Origin: a bacterium
GTDB lineage: Bacteria > Actinomycetota > UBA4738 > HRBIN12
Length of the DNA stretch: 64,000 nucleotides
Assembly (NCBI GenBank): GCA_046735355.1
Contig: JBKPTC010000031.1
Coordinates: forward strand, 159-64,158
Reading direction: 5' to 3'
Part shown: positions 27,018 through 47,192 of the stretch, one piece after another
Numbering within the stretch: the first letter of the stretch is position 1
How the letters are laid out: each line of letters begins with the position of its first letter
Position numbers and translations under genes: made by a program
Notes under the pieces: model-generated
The model's input: only the letters and a program-made list of their open reading frames with translations
The model's database searches: none
What the model was told of the DNA's origin: nothing

Positions 27018-27811
27018 GGCTCGCCTGCCAGGAGCAGCTGATCCCGGGGGATTCGCTCGAGGAGAAGTGGGAACTCGTTGCCACCGCGGGCTTCGACGGC
27101 ATCGAGGTGCTCGGACGCGGGGACGGCGAGTTCGCTCGCCGACGGCTCGAACTGTCTGGCGCGCGCGACCGCGGCGTCGTGATCTCGAGCGTCTGCGTCG
27201 CCATGGACCATTTCATCGGCGATTTCGACGACGCCCTGCGGCGCGATGCCATGGACCAGATGAAGATCCTGCTCTCGGTGATCGCTGAGGCGGGAGGGGT
27301 CGGGGCGGTCACGCCCGCCGCGTTCGGGCTCTGGTCCAACGCGCTCCCACCGTGGCGGCCGCCCGCGCGGACGCCGGAGGAGGACCGGCGGATCCTGGTG
27401 GACGCGCTCGCGGAGCTGGCCGGGCACGCCGAGCGGGAGGGGACGGCCGTGTTCCTCGAGCCGCTCAATCGATACGAGGATCACATGGTGAACACGGTCG
27501 GCGACGCTGCCGACATCGTGCGCCAGATCGGACGGCCGTCGGTCAAGGTCATGGCCGACACGTTCCACATGAGCATCGAGGAGGACGACCTCGCGGCCTC
27601 GATCCGCTCGGTGGGCGAGCTGATCGGACACGTGCAGCTGGGCGACAGCGGTCGCCTGCAGCCGGGCGTTGGTCACCTCGACTGGCCGCCGCTTATGGCG
27701 GCGCTCCGCGATGTCGGCTACGACGGCTGGCTCGCGATGGAGTGCGGGATCCGAGGGGATCCGCGGACCGAGCTGCCGAAGGTCGCGGAGCTGCTCAGGC
27801 CGCTGATGTGA
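27013..27811 (+). CDS. Sugar phosphate isomerase/epimerase (xylose isomerase-like TIM barrel).
   Basis: ATGA overlap with the upstream gene. AGFDGIEVLG...VFLEPLNRYEDHMVNTV...HVQLGDSGRLQPGVGHLDW are conserved barrel metal-site motifs. Confidence 0.8.
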
Positions 27812-27848
27812 GCGTCCCGGCTCGCGCCGCCGATGTGAGGGTTCCCGC

Positions 27849-28817
27849 TCAAGCCCACCACATCTGGCCGACCGGCTCGGCGAACAGGATCGACCGCAGC
27901 AGCTCCACGCCGCGTCGAAGCCCCTCGTCGATCGACATGTAGCCGTCCTCGTGCTCGATCGAGAGCACGTAGTCGTATCCGACCGCGCGAAGCGTGCTGA
28001 TGATGTCGCGCCACACCTTCTCGCCCTGGCCGTATCCGACGGTTCGAAAGACCCACGACCGATCGAGCAACTGCCCGTAGTGCTTGGTGTCGAGCACGCC
28101 GTTGATCGCCGTGTTCCGGCGGTCGATCTGCGTGTCCTTGGCGTGGAGGTGGACGATCGCGTCCTCGGCGGCCAGGGCCTTGATCACCTCGACGGGGTCC
28201 ATCCCCTGCCAGAACAGGTGACTCGGATCGAGGTTCGCGCCGACCGCGGAACCGCACGCGGCGCGCAGCTTCAGAAGCGTCTCGGTGTTGTAGACGACGA
28301 AGCCCGGGTGCATCTCGAAGCCGATCCTCACGCCGTGCGCCTTGGCGAAGGCGGCCTCGGCGCTCCAGTAGGGAACGACCTTCTCGTCCCACTGCCACTC
28401 GAGGATCTCGAGGAAGTCGTCGGGCCAGGGACACGTCACCCAGTTCGGATACCGTGAGCCCTCGCTGTCGCCGGGGCATCCGGAGAACGCGTTCACGACG
28501 GGCACCTCGAGCTGCTCGGCGAGGCGGACGGTCATGCGCCACGTCTCGTGCGCCCGCTCCGCGATCTCGCGCTGGGGATGAAGCGGGTTCCCGTGCTGGC
28601 TGAGCGCGCTGATGATCATCCCCCGGCCGTCGACGGCCTTCCGGAAGGCCTCCGCCGCCTGGCGATCCGATAACAGCGCGTCGGGATCGCAGTGGGCCGA
28701 CCCCGGGTAGTTTCCGGTACCGATCTCGACGGCCTCCACACCGAGTTCTTGCAGCCTGTCGAGCGCCTCCTCGAACGGCGCCTTCTGATACAGAACGCTG
28801 AACACTCCAAGCTTCAT
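27849..28817 (-). CDS. Sugar phosphate isomerase/epimerase (xylose isomerase-like TIM barrel).
   Basis: MKLGVFSVLYQKAPFEEALDRLQELGVEAVEIGTGNYPGSAHCD...RIGFEMHPGFVVYN...YVLSIEHEDGYMS. Confidence 0.85.
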   Translation of the reverse strand: MKLGVFSVLYQKAPFEEALDRLQELGVEAVEIGTGNYPGSAHCDPDALLSDRQAAEAFRKAVDGRGMIISALSQHGNPLHPQREIAERAHETWRMTVRLAEQLEVPVVNAFSGCPGDSEGSRYPNWVTCPWPDDFLEILEWQWDEKVVPYWSAEAAFAKAHGVRIGFEMHPGFVVYNTETLLKLRAACGSAVGANLDPSHLFWQGMDPVEVIKALAAEDAIVHLHAKDTQIDRRNTAINGVLDTKHYGQLLDRSWVFRTVGYGQGEKVWRDIISTLRAVGYDYVLSIEHEDGYMSIDEGLRRGVELLRSILFAEPVGQMWWA

Positions 28818-35313: not shown

Positions 35314-35368
35314 GTCGGTCCGCCGCCTCGCGTGGCGTTTCGCATGCGGGCGAGTCTAGCGATGGCCT

Positions 35369-35427
35369 GCCGGCCGTTCCGGCCGGCTCGCTCCGGCTCT
35401 GCCGGCCGTTCCGGCCGGCTCGCTCCG
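35369..35427. repeat. Two direct repeats (32-bp period), each holding the GC-rich palindrome gccggccg-ttc-cggccggc, in the divergent promoter between GH43 (-) and the ABC ATPase (+). Candidate operator sites.
   Basis: gccggccgttccggccggctcgctccg at 35369-35395 and again at 35401-35427. Stem gccggccg / cggccggc. Confidence 0.55.
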
Positions 35428-35480
35428 CTCGGGCGGCCATCGTAGAGTCCGGTTACCCAACGTTGGTGGCCGGAGGTGCG

Positions 35481-41113: not shown

Positions 41114-41767
41114 TCAGCCCGCGCTGACGAACGGGGCCGGATCGAAGATCGCCGTCTGCGCGACGAGATCGCCCGGGCCGCATTCCGCGCTCGAGCCGGT
41201 TTCGCCTATCACGTGGAGGTACAACGTTCGACCCGAGACCGAGAACGAATACGTGATCGTGCAGCCGTAGCCCTTCGCCTGAACGGTATGCGGTCCCGTT
41301 ACGGTGAAGCTCCCGCTCCAGCCCGCCTCCCGCTTGCCCGTGTCGCTCTCCGCCGTCTGGAACCAGAATCCGTCCTGCACCACGAGGCCCTGCCGGATCC
41401 AGCGGTCGAACCTCAGGCCCGGACCGAAGTAGTAGCGAGCCGCCTGCCGACGCGAGAAGCCGGCCTCGCGCAACGTCGACTCGATCGTCGAGCGCGTGAT
41501 CGGATGTGTCCAGTAGACGCCGTCCGGGATCGTCGCGACGGCCTCGCGCGACGGCGTTGGTCCCGTCGCCGCGGCCGACCGCCCGCGAGGCAGCGCGGAC
41601 AACCCGGCGGCTAGGCCGCCGATGCCGACGGCGAGCGCGACGACCGCCGTTCCGATCCGGCGGCGCGCGCGACGGCGCGTCCCCCGGTCGAGCGTCCGTT
41701 GGAGCGCGTCGGGCGGAAGCTCGAAGTGCTCGGAGCGCCGTTCGAGCCGCTCGCGCAGATCACTCAT
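41114..41767 (-). CDS. Putative anti-sigma factor (single TM, extracytoplasmic C-terminal domain).
   Basis: ATG 41767 is coupled to the sigma gene stop (atgagtga). MSDLRERLERRSEHFELPPDALQR, then TM segment IGTAVVALAVGIGGLAAGL. Confidence 0.5.
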   Translation of the reverse strand: MSDLRERLERRSEHFELPPDALQRTLDRGTRRRARRRIGTAVVALAVGIGGLAAGLSALPRGRSAAATGPTPSREAVATIPDGVYWTHPITRSTIESTLREAGFSRRQAARYYFGPGLRFDRWIRQGLVVQDGFWFQTAESDTGKREAGWSGSFTVTGPHTVQAKGYGCTITYSFSVSGRTLYLHVIGETGSSAECGPGDLVAQTAIFDPAPFVSAG

Positions 41768-42246
41768 CGATCGATCCGATCGTCTCGCGCATCGCCGCGC
41801 GCGCCTGCGACGCAAGCACGCGAACGGTGACGTCCCGGATGCCCATCATCGAAGCGGCCTCGCCCGACGTGCAGCCGAGGACGTCGAGGAGGACGAGCGC
41901 GGCTCGTTGCCGAGGCGTCAGATCGGCCAGCGCGCGGTCGATCGAATATCGGTCATCGACGACACCGAACGCGTCGGGCGAGAACTCGCTCGACGTCGAT
42001 GCGAGGCCCGCGACGGCACGGAAGTGGCGTGCGAGCTTCCGCGTCCTCTTCTTCCACCGGTTGAACGCCGCTCGATACAGATAGCCGACGGGATCGTCCA
42101 TCACGGAGACGCGGTCCCAGCGCTCTAGGAGCGCGAGGAACGCGTCCTGGACCATCTCCTCGGCCTCCTGCCGGTTGCCCGTGATGACGCACATGCGACG
42201 GTACAGGGTGGGCGCGTGGTCCTCGAAGAACGTCTCGAACGCCATC
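41760..42246 (-). CDS. ECF sigma-70 family sigma factor, paralogous to 11875-12399.
   Basis: FETFFEDHAPTLYRRMCVITGNRQEAEEMVQDAFLALLERW matches region 2. LTPRQRAALVLLDVLGCTSGEAASMMGIRDVTVRVLASQAR matches region 4. Confidence 0.75.
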
Positions 42247-42310
42247 ACAGACGCGCCGTCGGTCGCGCGGTCGCGCGTCGCGGCGACGAGCCTCAGGCGG
42301 GCCGACATCC

Positions 42311-42340
42311 AGTAGAGAACCCCCCTCGAGGTGGAACCGT
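42311..42340 (-). promoter_or_regulatory. Candidate ECF-type promoter (GGTTCC-N15-CTCTAC) upstream of the second ECF sigma gene.
   Basis: Minus-strand reading cGGTTCCacctcgaggggggttCTCTACtgg. The same -10-like hexamer and spacing occur at 12431-12460. Confidence 0.3.
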
Positions 42341-42455
42341 TTAGCCGGCGGCCCGAAGATCCAGAACATCGCGCCAACCCCGCGGATCGCTAAACGGATG
42401 AGCCACGGCGAGCCTTCTCCTCCCATCGGCATTCGAATCGAAGGAGGCGCTCATC

Positions 42456-42956
42456 ATGACACATCGGATCCGGATCGCGTTGACCGTCCGTCTCGCCGCC
42501 GGGGCCGCGATCGTGGGGGTGCTCGCATCGATCTTCGTCGCGCAGCCGGCGTTCGCGTCCACCGTCGTGCCGGTGCAGATGACGTTCACGGAGCAGGAGT
42601 TCTCGCCGAACTGCTCGCTTCCGGATGGCTTCTGCGGAACGGGCGTCGTGCTGCCGTACGGGAAGGTGACGGAGACGATCCGCTTCGAGGCAGGGTGCGG
42701 CGGTGGATGTGATCTTCGAACGATCTATCTCCCCGGCGGCTCGATTGTCGTCAACGAGCCGTTCAACACGGCGGTGTGCCCGGGAACGTGCGCTCCGGCG
42801 GGTCGTGGAGAGCCCGTCTACGCGGCTCTGTCCGACACGATCATCGCCGGGACTGGCGTCTTCGGGGGCGCGAGCGGGCATCTCGACGGTTCGGTGCGCG
42901 CGTCCGGCGACGCAAGTCTGATCCAGCTATCGGGATCGATCGTGCTGACCGGCTGA
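42456..42956 (+). CDS. Secreted cysteine-rich hypothetical protein.
   Basis: Strong RBS gaaggagg before ATG 42456. Signal peptide MTHRIRIALTVRLAAGAAIVGVLASIFVAQPAFAS. Eight Cys in the mature part. Divergent from the ECF sigma gene. Confidence 0.65.
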   Translation: MTHRIRIALTVRLAAGAAIVGVLASIFVAQPAFASTVVPVQMTFTEQEFSPNCSLPDGFCGTGVVLPYGKVTETIRFEAGCGGGCDLRTIYLPGGSIVVNEPFNTAVCPGTCAPAGRGEPVYAALSDTIIAGTGVFGGASGHLDGSVRASGDASLIQLSGSIVLTG

Positions 42957-43167
42957 GGGATCAGGCGTCGGAAGCGCCGCTTCTTTGAACCCTCGACGAC
43001 CTCGATCAGCTCGACGATGCTGTCGTTGAACGCGTCGAGCTCCTCGGCCGGGATCCAGTACTCGACGGTGCTCGGACGAGCCGACCTGATGCGTCCGTAG
43101 CGGCGAAGGTGGGCGTCGAGCACATCGAACCTCGTGACATAGCCGTCGAAATCGGACGCGTCGCGCG

Positions 43168-43680
43168 TTGCAGTCTCTGGCGATCCTCGCCGCGTACGCC
43201 TGGGGAACCCGATTGGCCGCGATCTTCGACTGGGAGAGCGTGAAGCGCGCGATCTTCGACTGGGAGAGCGTGAAGCGGTGCCCCGAGGCGGCGCTCGTCG
43301 GCATGGCGGCCGCGGTTTTCTCGGCCGTTTGGAGCGGTCACGACCCGTATCCAACGCCCGAGGAGTCGCGTTCGTTCGTCGAGGACTACGCGAATGCACG
43401 AGGCGTTCCCATGGGCGCCGACGAACGATCCCTCGTCGATGCCGCGTACTCGTACGCCGTCGCGTACGGCGCGCGCTGCGAGTACTCGGACGAAGCGCTC
43501 GGGATCTTCGGCGACGCAGCGGCACCGAGCGGTCGGCAGACTCTTCTGCGCCGTCGGCTCCTTACCAGTTTCGATGTGGCTGGTAGAACCGGAGCCCGAC
43601 TCAACCAGGTCTGCGACGTCCAGTTAACGGCCCGACGCTCCAGCCGACGCCGGCGCCGCATAGGTGCGGTCCAGCGATGA
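43168..43680 (+). CDS. Hypothetical protein containing an in-frame 10-aa tandem duplication (AIFDWESVKR x2). Coding status uncertain.
   Basis: High GC3 in the first two thirds. ERSLVDAAYSYAVAYGARCEYSDEALGIFGDAA is protein-like. The opposite strand at 42960-43175 is also coding-like, so the call is ambiguous. Confidence 0.3.
   Translation: MQSLAILAAYAWGTRLAAIFDWESVKRAIFDWESVKRCPEAALVGMAAAVFSAVWSGHDPYPTPEESRSFVEDYANARGVPMGADERSLVDAAYSYAVAYGARCEYSDEALGIFGDAAAPSGRQTLLRRRLLTSFDVAGRTGARLNQVCDVQLTARRSSRRRRRIGAVQR
43219..43278. repeat. Tandem duplication of a 30-bp unit (59/60 identical).
   Basis: gcgatcttcgactgggagagcgtgaagcgc at 43219-43248, then gcgatcttcgactgggagagcgtgaagcgg at 43249-43278. Confidence 0.9.
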
Positions 43681-43710
43681 GTCGGGGCGGACGTTCGGCG
43701 CCGCGGTTGG

Positions 43711-44556
43711 TTAACTGCGGTCGAGCGGCCGGGTGAGGCAGGTCGGGCCCCCGTCGCCCTTGCGTGAGATCTCGTCGCCCTCATACGTCCGGACGTCGAC
43801 GCCCGCGGCTTCCATCCGGCGGCGCGTCTCGTCGTTGCCCTCGAGCGCGAGGGCGACGCGCGGACCGAGCGCGAGCACGTTCGGCCCCATCGTCTCGAAC
43901 TCGTCCGTCGGCACCTCGACGATCCCGATGCTGCGCACGCGGAGGAGCTCGACGAGATGGCTCGGCATCAGCGGGGGATAGCCGACGACGAGGTCGACGT
44001 CGAGCGGGCTCAGCAGCGACAGGAGATGGAGGCATTCGCCGGGCCCGTTCAGATGCGGAAGGTCGAACGCGACAACGTCCGTGTCGGGAAGGAGCGATCG
44101 GAGACCTGCGATCCCCGCGTCGTTCGTTCGATACGAGCGGCCGACGACGAGCGTTCGCTCGTCGAGCCAGAACATGTCGCCGCCCTCGGCGGTAGCCGGC
44201 TCCTCGAGCCGCCCGACCACCGCAACGCCCGCGTCGGACAGGTCCTCGGCGAGGGCGGCGGGCTCCTCGCGGCGGCCGGGCTTGCCGGGGCGGAGCAGGA
44301 TCGCGCCGCGATCCGTCATCAGGACCGGGTCGTACGCGTAGATCGCGTCGGGATCACCCTCGACCGGCGTGGTGCCGACGACGACCTCGGCGCCCGCGAC
44401 CTCGAGCTCGGCTCGGAACGCCTCGTGTTCTGCCGCGGCGCGCATCGGATCGGGCTCGGCTCGCCATCCGTAGTCGCGCCACGCGAGGTGGTCGTTTGGT
44501 TGCGGCGCGCGGACGAGCACGCGCTTGAGCGTCCCGGTCTGATCTTGTGCGGCCAC
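43711..44556 (-). CDS. Amidinotransferase-superfamily enzyme (DDAH / arginine deiminase-like).
   Basis: C-terminal catalytic motif GGPTCLTRPL (Cys nucleophile), preceded by the family His/Asp positions (FDLPHLNGPGECLHLLSLLSPLD). Confidence 0.75.
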   Translation of the reverse strand: MAAQDQTGTLKRVLVRAPQPNDHLAWRDYGWRAEPDPMRAAAEHEAFRAELEVAGAEVVVGTTPVEGDPDAIYAYDPVLMTDRGAILLRPGKPGRREEPAALAEDLSDAGVAVVGRLEEPATAEGGDMFWLDERTLVVGRSYRTNDAGIAGLRSLLPDTDVVAFDLPHLNGPGECLHLLSLLSPLDVDLVVGYPPLMPSHLVELLRVRSIGIVEVPTDEFETMGPNVLALGPRVALALEGNDETRRRMEAAGVDVRTYEGDEISRKGDGGPTCLTRPLDRS

Positions 44557-45004: not shown

Positions 45005-45945
45005 TCACCTCGAGACGACGGGAGCCTCCCGCGGTTCCGAGGACGGGCGTCCGATGCGCGGCCATCCGTCCCGCCACTCGACCGGATCGAGCAGCATGAC
45101 GCGCGGGCCGAGCCGCCTCGAGCGCATCGCGTGGTAAAGCATCCAGTCGGTGCCCGCGTCGTCGCGGACGATCGCGCAGTGGCCGGGCGCGATCCACCGA
45201 CCGTCCGTCGATTCGAGGATCGGGTTTCCGGCGAACCGTTCGAAGTCCTCGAGCGGCGACGCGGCGCGGGACACCGCGACGGCGTAGTGCGGGTCGGCGT
45301 ACATGCAACACACGTCGCCGGAGGTGAACAGGTAGATCCGGCCGTCGCGCTCGAGCATCCAGGGGCCCTCGACCACGCTGTCGTAGCCCGTGCCCTCCTC
45401 GCCGATCGGGAGCAGCACCGCGCGACCGTCGCCGGCGGGGCGCACCCCGTCTCGATCGATCGGCGCGACCTTGACCTGGTTCTCCTCGCTCCAGACGAAG
45501 AACCGCTCGCCGCGCGCACGCGTGAGCACGTTGGCGTCGATGCGTTCGTGCTCGCCGTCGATCAGGTGAGCCGGCTCGGGCTCGAACGGTCCCTCCGGTC
45601 GATCGGCGACGGCGAGGCCGAGCTGCATCTTTTGCGTGGCTCGATCCTCGATCGACAGATACAGCACGTATCGGCCGCGGACGAGCTCGATGTGCGGCGC
45701 CCACGACGCTCGTCTGCCCCACGGCGGCAGTCGCGGAAGTGCGTCGCCGACGAACGTCCACTCGACGAGGTTCTCGGAGCGAAGGACGGGCACCCAGACG
45801 CGGCGCCGGCGGTAGTACGTCATCGTCGTGTAGCACCAGAACACGCCGTTCGGATCGCGGACCACGGACGGGTCGGGTGCTACGTGGTCGAAGACCGGGT
45901 TCGTGTACGTTCGCCCGCCTCGCGCCGAAGCCGCGACTACTGGTT
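45005..45945 (-). CDS. Glycoside hydrolase family 43. No canonical start codon sits upstream of the conserved N-terminus.
   Basis: TYTNPVFDHVAPDPSVVRDPNGVFWCYTT...SENLVEWTFVGDAL...WAPHIELVRGRYVLYLS...SVVEGPWMLERDGRIYLFTS. The in-frame region upstream of NPVF has no ATG, GTG or TTG before the upstream gene's stop. Confidence 0.65.
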
Positions 45946-47079
45946 CGAGCTCCAGCGGAGCAGTGCGCCGACGCCGTCCGTGAGACCGGTCCCGGCGGGC
46001 ACCAGCCGGATGCCGGCCGCCGTGCCGATCGCCGCGCGGATCACCGCGTCGATGCGACGGACCTCGATCGGCCGCTCGACGCCGAGCGCCTCGAGGTCCT
46101 CGCGCCGAGCCGCGACGGGTACGGCCTCGGACCCGACCCACACGGTCGCGCCGTCCTCGAGGTCCTCGTGCAGCAGGAGCACCGCGACCTGCGACGACGA
46201 CAGCGCGGTCAGCATCGCGTCCGCGCCCTCGGTCGCCAGGTCGCGCTGCCCGCTCTCCTCGCGGAACCGCTCGACGATCGCGCGCGTCTCGCCCTCGACG
46301 AACCGGTCGAGGACCTCCTGGGCCTCGGCCGGCATCATCGGCCCCGAGCCCTCCCACGGGCGCTCGCCGGGAACGATCTCGACCGGCAGATCGAACTCGG
46401 ACGGCCACGAGTCCTGGATCAGCGTCACGGCGCGGACGTCGCCGGCGAGCATCACGAGACGCGCCTCGATCCGACCGGCGAGCCGCGCGATCGCCTGCGC
46501 AACGTCCTGCGCGTTCTCCTGCCACGTGTTCTCGGCGCGTTCCTGGTACCGGCGCTGCGACCAGCCGCCCGGCCCGACCTTGCTGATCGTCGAGTCGTCG
46601 CCCTTCACCTCGCGCTCGACGTCAGGCGTGTCCTCTCCCGCGCGCTCGAAGCCGTACAGGGTCGCTCCGGTTCGATCGGCGAGCGCGACGACGAACGGGA
46701 CCGACGTCTGCCGCCATCGCAACACCTGCTCCAGACGAGGGAGCGGCTCCCAGAACGCCTCATCGGTCGGTCCGGGGAGCGAGCCGTGCTCGACGTGCCG
46801 GACCCCCGAGGCGTCGGCGATCACCACGAGGCCGTCGCCGGACAGATGGGCATCCGGGATGACCGGGTCGACCGCGGCGAGCACGTCCTCGGGGACGTCG
46901 CAGTTGTCGGCGAGGTCCGAGCGCAGCGTGCGCCATCGCTGGTCGCTCCGCTGTTGGGCGTTCTCGATGCCGCTCTCGGTCGTCATCACGACGGTGAGGA
47001 ACGGACCCTCGCCCGAGGCGAGGTCCGACAGATCGGCCGGCGCGACGGCGCCGGCGGGCAGAGCTTCGGAGGTCTCCAT
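45937..47079 (-). CDS. Bacterial eRF1/Pelota-like (release-factor-like) domain protein, with GGW in place of the GGQ motif.
   Basis: N-terminal GPFLTVVMTTESGIENAQQR. Central SKVGPGGWSQRRYQERAEN aligns with eRF1 domain-2 HGRGGQSALRFARLR. Divergent from the MFS gene. Confidence 0.6.
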   Translation of the reverse strand: METSEALPAGAVAPADLSDLASGEGPFLTVVMTTESGIENAQQRSDQRWRTLRSDLADNCDVPEDVLAAVDPVIPDAHLSGDGLVVIADASGVRHVEHGSLPGPTDEAFWEPLPRLEQVLRWRQTSVPFVVALADRTGATLYGFERAGEDTPDVEREVKGDDSTISKVGPGGWSQRRYQERAENTWQENAQDVAQAIARLAGRIEARLVMLAGDVRAVTLIQDSWPSEFDLPVEIVPGERPWEGSGPMMPAEAQEVLDRFVEGETRAIVERFREESGQRDLATEGADAMLTALSSSQVAVLLLHEDLEDGATVWVGSEAVPVAARREDLEALGVERPIEVRRIDAVIRAAIGTAAGIRLVPAGTGLTDGVGALLRWSSNQ

Positions 47080-47192
47080 GCGGCACCCGTTCCCGAAGAG
47101 GGCCGCGGCGAACCGCGCCTCGCGTGCGACGGGCCACGATCGCATGGGTCGTCCGACCGCGCGCAGCGCGACGCGGCTGCGATGCTGTCGCT

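Follow-up and report, generated by a model that had tools for sequence, protein, structure and literature searches.

A 30-bp tandem duplication, probably recent, beside the head-to-head junction of two 5′-truncated gene remnants in a high-GC contig

At 43218-43277 of the window (the whole 64-kb stretch of DNA analysed here), a perfect 30-bp tandem duplication lies beside a junction at which two unrelated genes, each truncated at its 5′ end, meet head-to-head. On the plus strand, the duplication falls within the last third of a divergent APH-type phosphotransferase; on the minus strand, the remnant is the C-terminal ~60% of a ~117-aa protein. Taken together, we consider it likely that the interval 42992-43554 is debris of these two genes and that the duplication within it is a recent, neutral change with no switching role. 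The finding is real but ordinary, small tandem duplications being commonplace in decaying genes.

Results

A perfect, in-frame tandem duplication

The duplicated block consists of two copies of one unit:

43218..43247, plus strand: copy 1 of the 30-bp unit CGCGATCTTCGACTGGGAGAGCGTGAAGCG, encoding AIFDWESVKR (ORF residues 18-27)
43248..43277, plus strand: copy 2 of the 30-bp unit CGCGATCTTCGACTGGGAGAGCGTGAAGCG, same as copy 1 (ORF residues 28-37)

Tandem Repeats Finder (TRF) assigned the interval 43218-43277 a period of 30, 2.0 copies, 100% matches and a score of 120, and direct string comparison confirmed that 43218-43247 matches 43248-43277 letter for letter, the two 30-mers being directly adjacent. 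The edges of the repeat are sharp (C at 43217 vs G at 43247; G at 43278 vs C at 43248), the block measures exactly 60 bp, and microhomology at its borders is absent. A pattern search tolerating up to 3 mismatches recovered no further copy of the unit on either strand of the 64-kb window, and none of 100 dinucleotide-preserving shuffles produced a match to it. A prior reading of this DNA, made from the sequence only (hereafter the sequence-only reading), had reported a 30-bp in-frame tandem duplication at this site, and TRF, string identity and the pattern search agree that it is real. The same reading described the two units as differing at their final base, which is true in the codon register 43219-43278 (cgc vs cgg, both Arg); shifted by one base from that register, the two 30-bp units are identical.

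The peptide AIFDWESVKR thus occurs twice, in frame, within ORF 43168..43680, and the strand that it duplicates carries the Mg-binding Asp motif (IFDWES). When the retrieved homologues of the plus fragment were aligned with hmmalign, the duplicated block was single in every one of them (149/149), and no 6-mer was found repeated within 40 residues in any of these 149 sequences. Because all homologues are single-copy, the duplication is the derived state, as had been proposed, and because the two copies are still identical, it is probably evolutionarily recent and the youngest event at the locus.

The plus-strand ORF contains the C-terminal part of an APH-type phosphotransferase

Two plus-strand features host the duplication:

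43168..43680, plus strand: ORF of 170 aa with a TTG start, identical to database protein P0001, a singleton
43204..43554, plus strand: C-terminal remnant of a divergent APH-type phosphotransferase (PF01636-related, ~345 aa), assigned by phmmer and a family profile

The sequence-only reading had proposed homology searches of the candidate proteins on both strands, and both were informative. For the plus strand, a word-indexed search with the ORF returned only its self match P0001, and comparison to Pfam gave no match for 43168-43680 at E <= 1; a phmmer search against 1.84 billion representatives recovered 492 relatives at E <= 1e-3, the best non-self match being P0124 (50% identity, E 6.6e-22). 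In full-length relatives (~330-370 aa), the match covers about residues 215-345, and on the query side most homologue alignments open with the second repeat copy, at residue 27/28. Only residues ~13-129 of the 170-aa ORF are homologous to anything, and they represent the last third of ~345-aa APH-family proteins. A subfamily profile of 342 positions, built from 60 full-length members, matched 43246-43554 at positions 234-334 (E 2.4e-34), its sole match in the 64-kb window. The left limit of homology at 43204 was set by eye, from the resemblance of GTRLAAIFDWES to the consensus GDRVVAVYDWDS through the first repeat copy, and the remnant 43204-43554 accordingly spans profile positions ~228-334 of 342 (~105 residues). 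Three relatives (P0124, P0131 and P0151) score 36.6-42.6 bits against Pfam PF01636 (APH), above its gathering threshold of 23.2 bits, with the match ending at the DWD strand. Neither Pfam, NCBIfam nor PADLOC gave matches for the plus or minus fragments of the window, and a PDB sequence search with the APH-like family gave nothing useful.

Like members of PF01636, the plus remnant has the metal-binding Asp strand, xDW(D/E)S, kept here as IFDWES and present twice, followed by ~95 aligned residues of the C-terminal helical region. It shows 40-53% identity to the subfamily over the C-terminal ~105 residues and retains the subfamily motifs PE..LVG, F(V/I).DYE.ARG and AYGARC.HSD. Unlike those proteins, it falls below the Pfam threshold and lacks both the N-lobe and the H.D....N loop, and its 10-residue tandem duplication is absent in the 149 relatives. 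The catalytic loop, GH.DWR.(E/Q)N, is present in all full-length relatives shown, 18 residues upstream of the aligned part; at this locus the HxDWRxxN loop is missing upstream of 43204 in all plus frames and is absent from the whole window, and profile positions 1-233 (N-lobe) found no match in six frames of the 64-kb window. With the N-lobe and catalytic loop absent, a product of the plus ORF could not act as a kinase.

The sequence-only reading had treated the ORF as a 170-aa protein with good GC3, a description that has to be revised, since 43168..43680 is a composite of a TTG with ~10 antisense codons, the APH remnant with its duplication, and a ~42-codon tail. LAILAAYA, at its N-terminus, comes from the reverse complement of minus-strand YAARIARD, and the TTG start is fortuitous; in the tail (43555-43680), the codon-position signal is absent and GC3 is 0.66. 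The remnant itself is open over ~117 codons, with no stop and no frameshift, and keeps 22/27 positions that are near-invariant in the APH subfamily, a proportion within the range of intact homologues. Such good preservation implies either a recent truncation or some remaining constraint on the fragment.

The second of these options would correspond to an expressed, stand-alone C-terminal helical APH subdomain, made from the 170-aa ORF or in a shorter form from an internal ATG/GTG, with the duplication as a recent change in a working protein. Consistent with this reading, the frame is open throughout 43168-43680, the 22 retained positions are accompanied by a native codon-position profile (GC3 0.82), a TTG-start ORF exists, gene callers called both this ORF and the one on the minus strand, and many phmmer matches are themselves short (93-170 aa), though most of these probably derive from truncated metagenomic contigs. 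Against it, the product would lack the ATP-binding lobe and catalytic loop and so be no kinase, the only start is a TTG lying in the antisense of another gene, where neither a ribosome-binding motif nor a promoter motif could be recognised, P0001 is a singleton for which no orthologue of the same architecture was found, and the duplicated strand would normally pack against the missing N-lobe. We therefore regard a stand-alone protein as unlikely, and a newly born, expressed mini-protein encoded by the 170-aa ORF would be less likely than the single-scar origin considered below. Judged by its lack of N-lobe, catalytic loop, native start and promoter, the plus ORF is probably not expressed.

Elsewhere, on one metagenomic contig (L084:17-2559), the APH-like protein P0125 is encoded directly downstream of a 498-aa GNAT + APH protein, with a 4-bp overlap, which suggests that the APH-like subfamily can sit in tandem with another small-molecule-modifying enzyme.

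The minus strand carries a frameshifted remnant of a small-protein family

The minus-strand remnant comprises two homologous pieces, the lesion between them and an extension:

43164..43196, minus strand: piece 1, YAARIARDCNA, family positions 48-58 (consensus YAVKIARDWNV), recognised by an 8-mer of P0003
43160..43164, minus strand: frameshift, from codon comparison; the family has one base and one codon fewer here
42992..43162, minus strand: piece 2, DASDFDGYVTRFDVLDAHLRRYGRIRSARPSTVEYWIPAEELDAFNDSIVELIEVVE, family positions ~59-114 of 117, from homologues and profile
42818..42991, minus strand: read-through extension past the usual family end, without family homology

The fragment DFDGYVTRFDVL...EVVEG at 42960-43175 has no start, and its frame stays open to 42818. 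The sequence-only reading had noted this startless fragment and its antisense course into the secreted-protein gene, an observation that we could confirm and extend: the read-through frame runs in antisense across the last ~139 bp of the convergent gene 42456..42956. The homology search with this candidate identified P0003, a 117-aa protein from a Cellulomonadaceae MAG (52% identity, E 3.6e-8), and P0004 (60% identity, E 1e-6). A 121-member family profile matched 43147-42992 at positions 63-114 of 117 (E 1e-13 to 6e-16), and a weak profile match (hmm 35-59) was found in the frame of piece 1, which shares the exact 8-mer YAARIARD with P0003. The last codon of piece 1 is 43166-43164 and the first codon of piece 2 (DASDFDGYV...) is 43162-43160, in the other frame, where the consensus continues as ...NVKASGSGFVTRF. 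The location of the two pieces in different minus frames places a frameshift near 43163.

The remnant represents the C-terminal ~60% of a ~117-aa protein and shares with that family its C-terminal blocks (YA..IARD.N, G(F/Y)VTRF, EYWIPAEELDAFN and I..IEVV). Unlike intact members, it is split over two frames, has no start, has lost its stop and covers positions 48-114 only; the invariant N-terminal blocks LWRP.GP.EL and PPRLP.QPIFYP are lacking, and a profile search for family positions 1-47 gave no match anywhere in the 64-kb window. Even after correction of the frameshift, the remnant has lost 11/41 positions that are near-invariant among the 121 members (30/41 kept), compared to about 5 differences at near-invariant positions over the same span in the intact actinobacterial P0003. 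The changes at near-invariant sites include W56C, G62D, G85A, G86R and G108E, and V58 is also lost. Members of the family normally end 3-4 residues after IEVV (...IEVVREFR), a point past which the minus frame continues for 58 codons to the stop at 42818. The database protein P0002 (101 aa, a singleton) is a gene call on this minus-strand debris. We recommend annotating the hypothetical proteins of 170 aa and 101 aa at this locus as pseudogene fragments, the former derived from an APH-type phosphotransferase and the latter from a small ADP-ribosyltransferase-like protein.

The predicted fold of the ~117-aa family resembles ADP-ribosyltransferases

A search with P0004 revealed a very widespread, strongly conserved family of 115-120-aa proteins comprising at least 8000 clusters, among whose intact members is P0104 from Bradyrhizobium. 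The family has the invariant N-terminal blocks LWRP.GP.EL and PPRLP.QPIFYP and the C-terminal blocks YA..IARDWN, G.VTRF and EYWIPAE..FN..I.G.IEVV. No matches to the family were found in Pfam, NCBIfam, PADLOC or PDB sequences, and some of its NCBI records are titled "ADP-ribosylation/crystallin J1". An AlphaFold (AF2) model of P0003 has a pLDDT of 91, and its best Foldseek matches in the PDB are Tpt1/KptA (E 5e-3) and the RhsP2 toxin (TM 0.62), with further structural matches to TreTu, diphtheria toxin, PARP14 and CC0527; all of the best matches have the ADP-ribosyltransferase fold. On this fold resemblance only, the family is predicted to be ADP-ribosyltransferase-like, and it appears to be uncharacterised. 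We consider the family more interesting than the locus and deserving of separate study.

Two abutting coding signals meet at the junction

The boundary between the two remnants and the codon-position composition on either side of it are as follows:

43197..43203, no strand: head-to-head junction of the two 5′-truncated remnants, from frame translations compared with the family consensus
42992-43147, minus strand: GC1/2/3 of 0.65/0.39/0.88
43204-43554, plus strand: GC1/2/3 of 0.68/0.54/0.82
43555-43680, plus strand: ORF tail, GC1/2/3 of 0.69/0.61/0.66

The outermost codon still homologous to the minus-strand family is the Tyr codon at 43196-43194, and APH homology starts at ~43204; the repeat starts 14-20 bp to the right of this junction. 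In a window with an overall G+C of 69.4%, codon-phase G+C gives a minus signal over ~42960-43130 and a plus signal over ~43140-43500 that fades after ~43540. The two coding signals abut without overlap and belong to two different truncated genes. Third codon positions of the plus ORF coincide with those of the minus ORF 42927..43304, and this sharing of the third position between the plus frame and one minus frame accounts for the double coding look over 43168-43304. The suggestion of the sequence-only reading that both strands are coding here therefore stands insofar as both hold sequence with homologues, and fails insofar as these sequences are adjacent and share third positions rather than overlap. 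Its further suspicion that the locus had been rearranged was well founded, two 5′-truncated remnants meeting at 43197-43203. The locus shows how a "both strands coding" appearance can originate in high-GC genomes, from abutting remnants together with antisense frames that share the third position.

A sigma-70 consensus scan of 42300-43800, a weak test in a high-GC lineage, revealed no promoter-like site, and the scan of this interval showed one weak terminator-like hairpin directly after the secreted-protein gene. Comparison to Rfam returned a sub-threshold chance match only. No switch in GC skew is visible at the junction, on a profile too noisy to tell a deletion from an inversion, and base composition and codon-position GC are alike on both sides.

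Proposed origin of the junction and of the duplication

We propose that the junction at 43197-43203, at which both promoters, both starts and the phosphotransferase catalytic core were removed, arose either by a deletion between two divergently transcribed genes or as one breakpoint of an inversion. In the second case, the opposite breakpoint would be found beyond the window and would join the N-terminal halves of the two genes; profile searches located neither of these missing halves within the window. Following the truncation, the minus remnant would have had time to gather its frameshift and substitutions, while the APH remnant is still clean. The duplication would then be a separate or accompanying mutation inside the APH remnant, and we infer that it is neutral, as this remnant no longer encodes a working enzyme.

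Replication slippage, a template switch or fill-in synthesis at end joining may have produced such a duplication. Slippage usually relies on short direct repeats, and in its classical form it fits poorly here given the lack of microhomology at the borders; a search for inverted or direct repeats nearby that might mediate such events found short imperfect matches only. The block resembles the slippage or end-joining duplications of bacterial pseudogenes in having adjacent, identical short copies that are single in relatives, in DNA that is apparently unselected. It differs from them in the missing border microhomology and in its position 14-20 bp from a junction, which is perhaps a coincidence. 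If this proximity is instead meaningful, the junction and the 30-bp duplication could together be a single scar of error-prone double-strand break (DSB) repair or template switching, for example by Ku/LigD-type end joining with fill-in, a possibility that we rate as rather unlikely. Were the two shown to be one event, the locus would be a minor, naturally occurring case of a complex repair scar in a little-studied lineage, although of modest interest only.

A target-site duplication left by an excised insertion sequence was also considered and was rejected, as no element or footprint is present; a length of 30 bp is, to our knowledge, far above that of known target duplications.

Genomic neighbourhood and comparison with relatives

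The genes flanking the two remnants are the following:

41114..41815, minus strand: probable anti-sigma gene
41760..42377, minus strand: ECF sigma factor (Sigma70_r2, r4_2), followed by the anti-sigma gene
42456..42956, plus strand: 166-aa Cys-rich protein with a signal-peptide-like N-terminus, divergent from the ECF sigma gene
43711..44556, minus strand: DDAH-like gene (Pfam ADI/DDAH_eukar)

The Cys-rich protein has no family match, and a metagenome scan found one relative, at 31% identity. Proximity to this ECF-sigma, anti-sigma and secreted-protein cluster, combined with a perfect tandem repeat inside an ORF, is what speaks for a contingency locus, as the sequence-only reading had ventured, in which the 30-bp copy number would change often and modulate a phase- or antigen-variable gene product. 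Known contingency loci share the perfect tandem repeat inside an ORF and differ in having many short units that shift frame or promoter spacing. Here there are two copies only, of a unit whose length is a multiple of three, so that changes in copy number cannot switch the frame; the host is a dead, 5′-truncated fragment with no catalytic core and no detectable promoter, and the repeat occurs at this site in 0/149 homologues. A contingency role is thus highly improbable, and debris carrying a recent neutral duplication remains our preferred explanation.

Comparative context was sought through the DDAH-like neighbour, whose orthologues were collected from 80 loci (62-77% identity) in MAGs labelled Solirubrobacterales, Gaiellaceae, Thermoleophilia or Actinomycetota. 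Judged by this gene alone, the DNA probably comes from an uncultured, Thermoleophilia-like actinobacterium. An APH-like or ~117-aa family gene was found within 8 kb of the DDAH-like gene at none of these 80 loci, nor did the two families occur as neighbours in any of four contexts inspected. The DDAH-like loci show little conservation of gene order, with one of them (L004) alone sharing the right-hand neighbours; the L004 contig ends 190 bp past its DDAH gene and shows no similarity to the window beyond the stop. The gene order found left of the junction occurs beside the DDAH-like gene in no relative, and since gene order is poorly conserved in this group, such lack of synteny says little. 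Close relatives were also sought via the plus ORF, and none was present in the genome or metagenome contigs searched; an exact-protein index gave no match for P0001 or the neighbouring secreted protein.

These comparisons bear on whether the structure might be an assembly artefact, that is, a chimeric join in a metagenome-assembled contig and/or a duplication introduced by assembler or consensus error. The DNA apparently comes from a single 71-kb contig, its closest relatives are without exception metagenome-assembled genomes, two truncated genes abut abruptly with an odd repeat 14-20 bp from the join, and the arrangement left of the junction lacks a counterpart beside the DDAH-like gene in any relative. 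On the other hand, a normal read, like the large k-mers of final assembly, is longer than the perfect 60-bp block, which must therefore occur in reads; base composition and codon-position GC are equal across the junction; the minus remnant has lesions of its own, a frameshift and missing invariant residues, which no join would create; and gene order is poorly conserved in the group generally. We accordingly judge an artefact quite improbable.

To the right of the DDAH-like gene, two minus-strand ORFs overlap (45005..46525 and 45937..47145), and synteny with L004 supports the 402-aa ORF 45937..47145. Given this support, the true start of the gene downstream of 45937..47145 is probably well inside its 506-aa ORF.

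Two further tandem repeats were observed elsewhere in the window. The repeat at 35367-35438 has the highest TRF score of the window (121; period 32, 2.3 copies, 92% matches), and its unit holds a perfect hairpin with an 8-bp stem (GCCGGCCG-TTC-CGGCCGGC), so that it may be a repeated terminator or REP-like element. The repeat at 27793-27855 has a 27-bp unit in 2.3 copies with 77% matches and a TRF score of 77.
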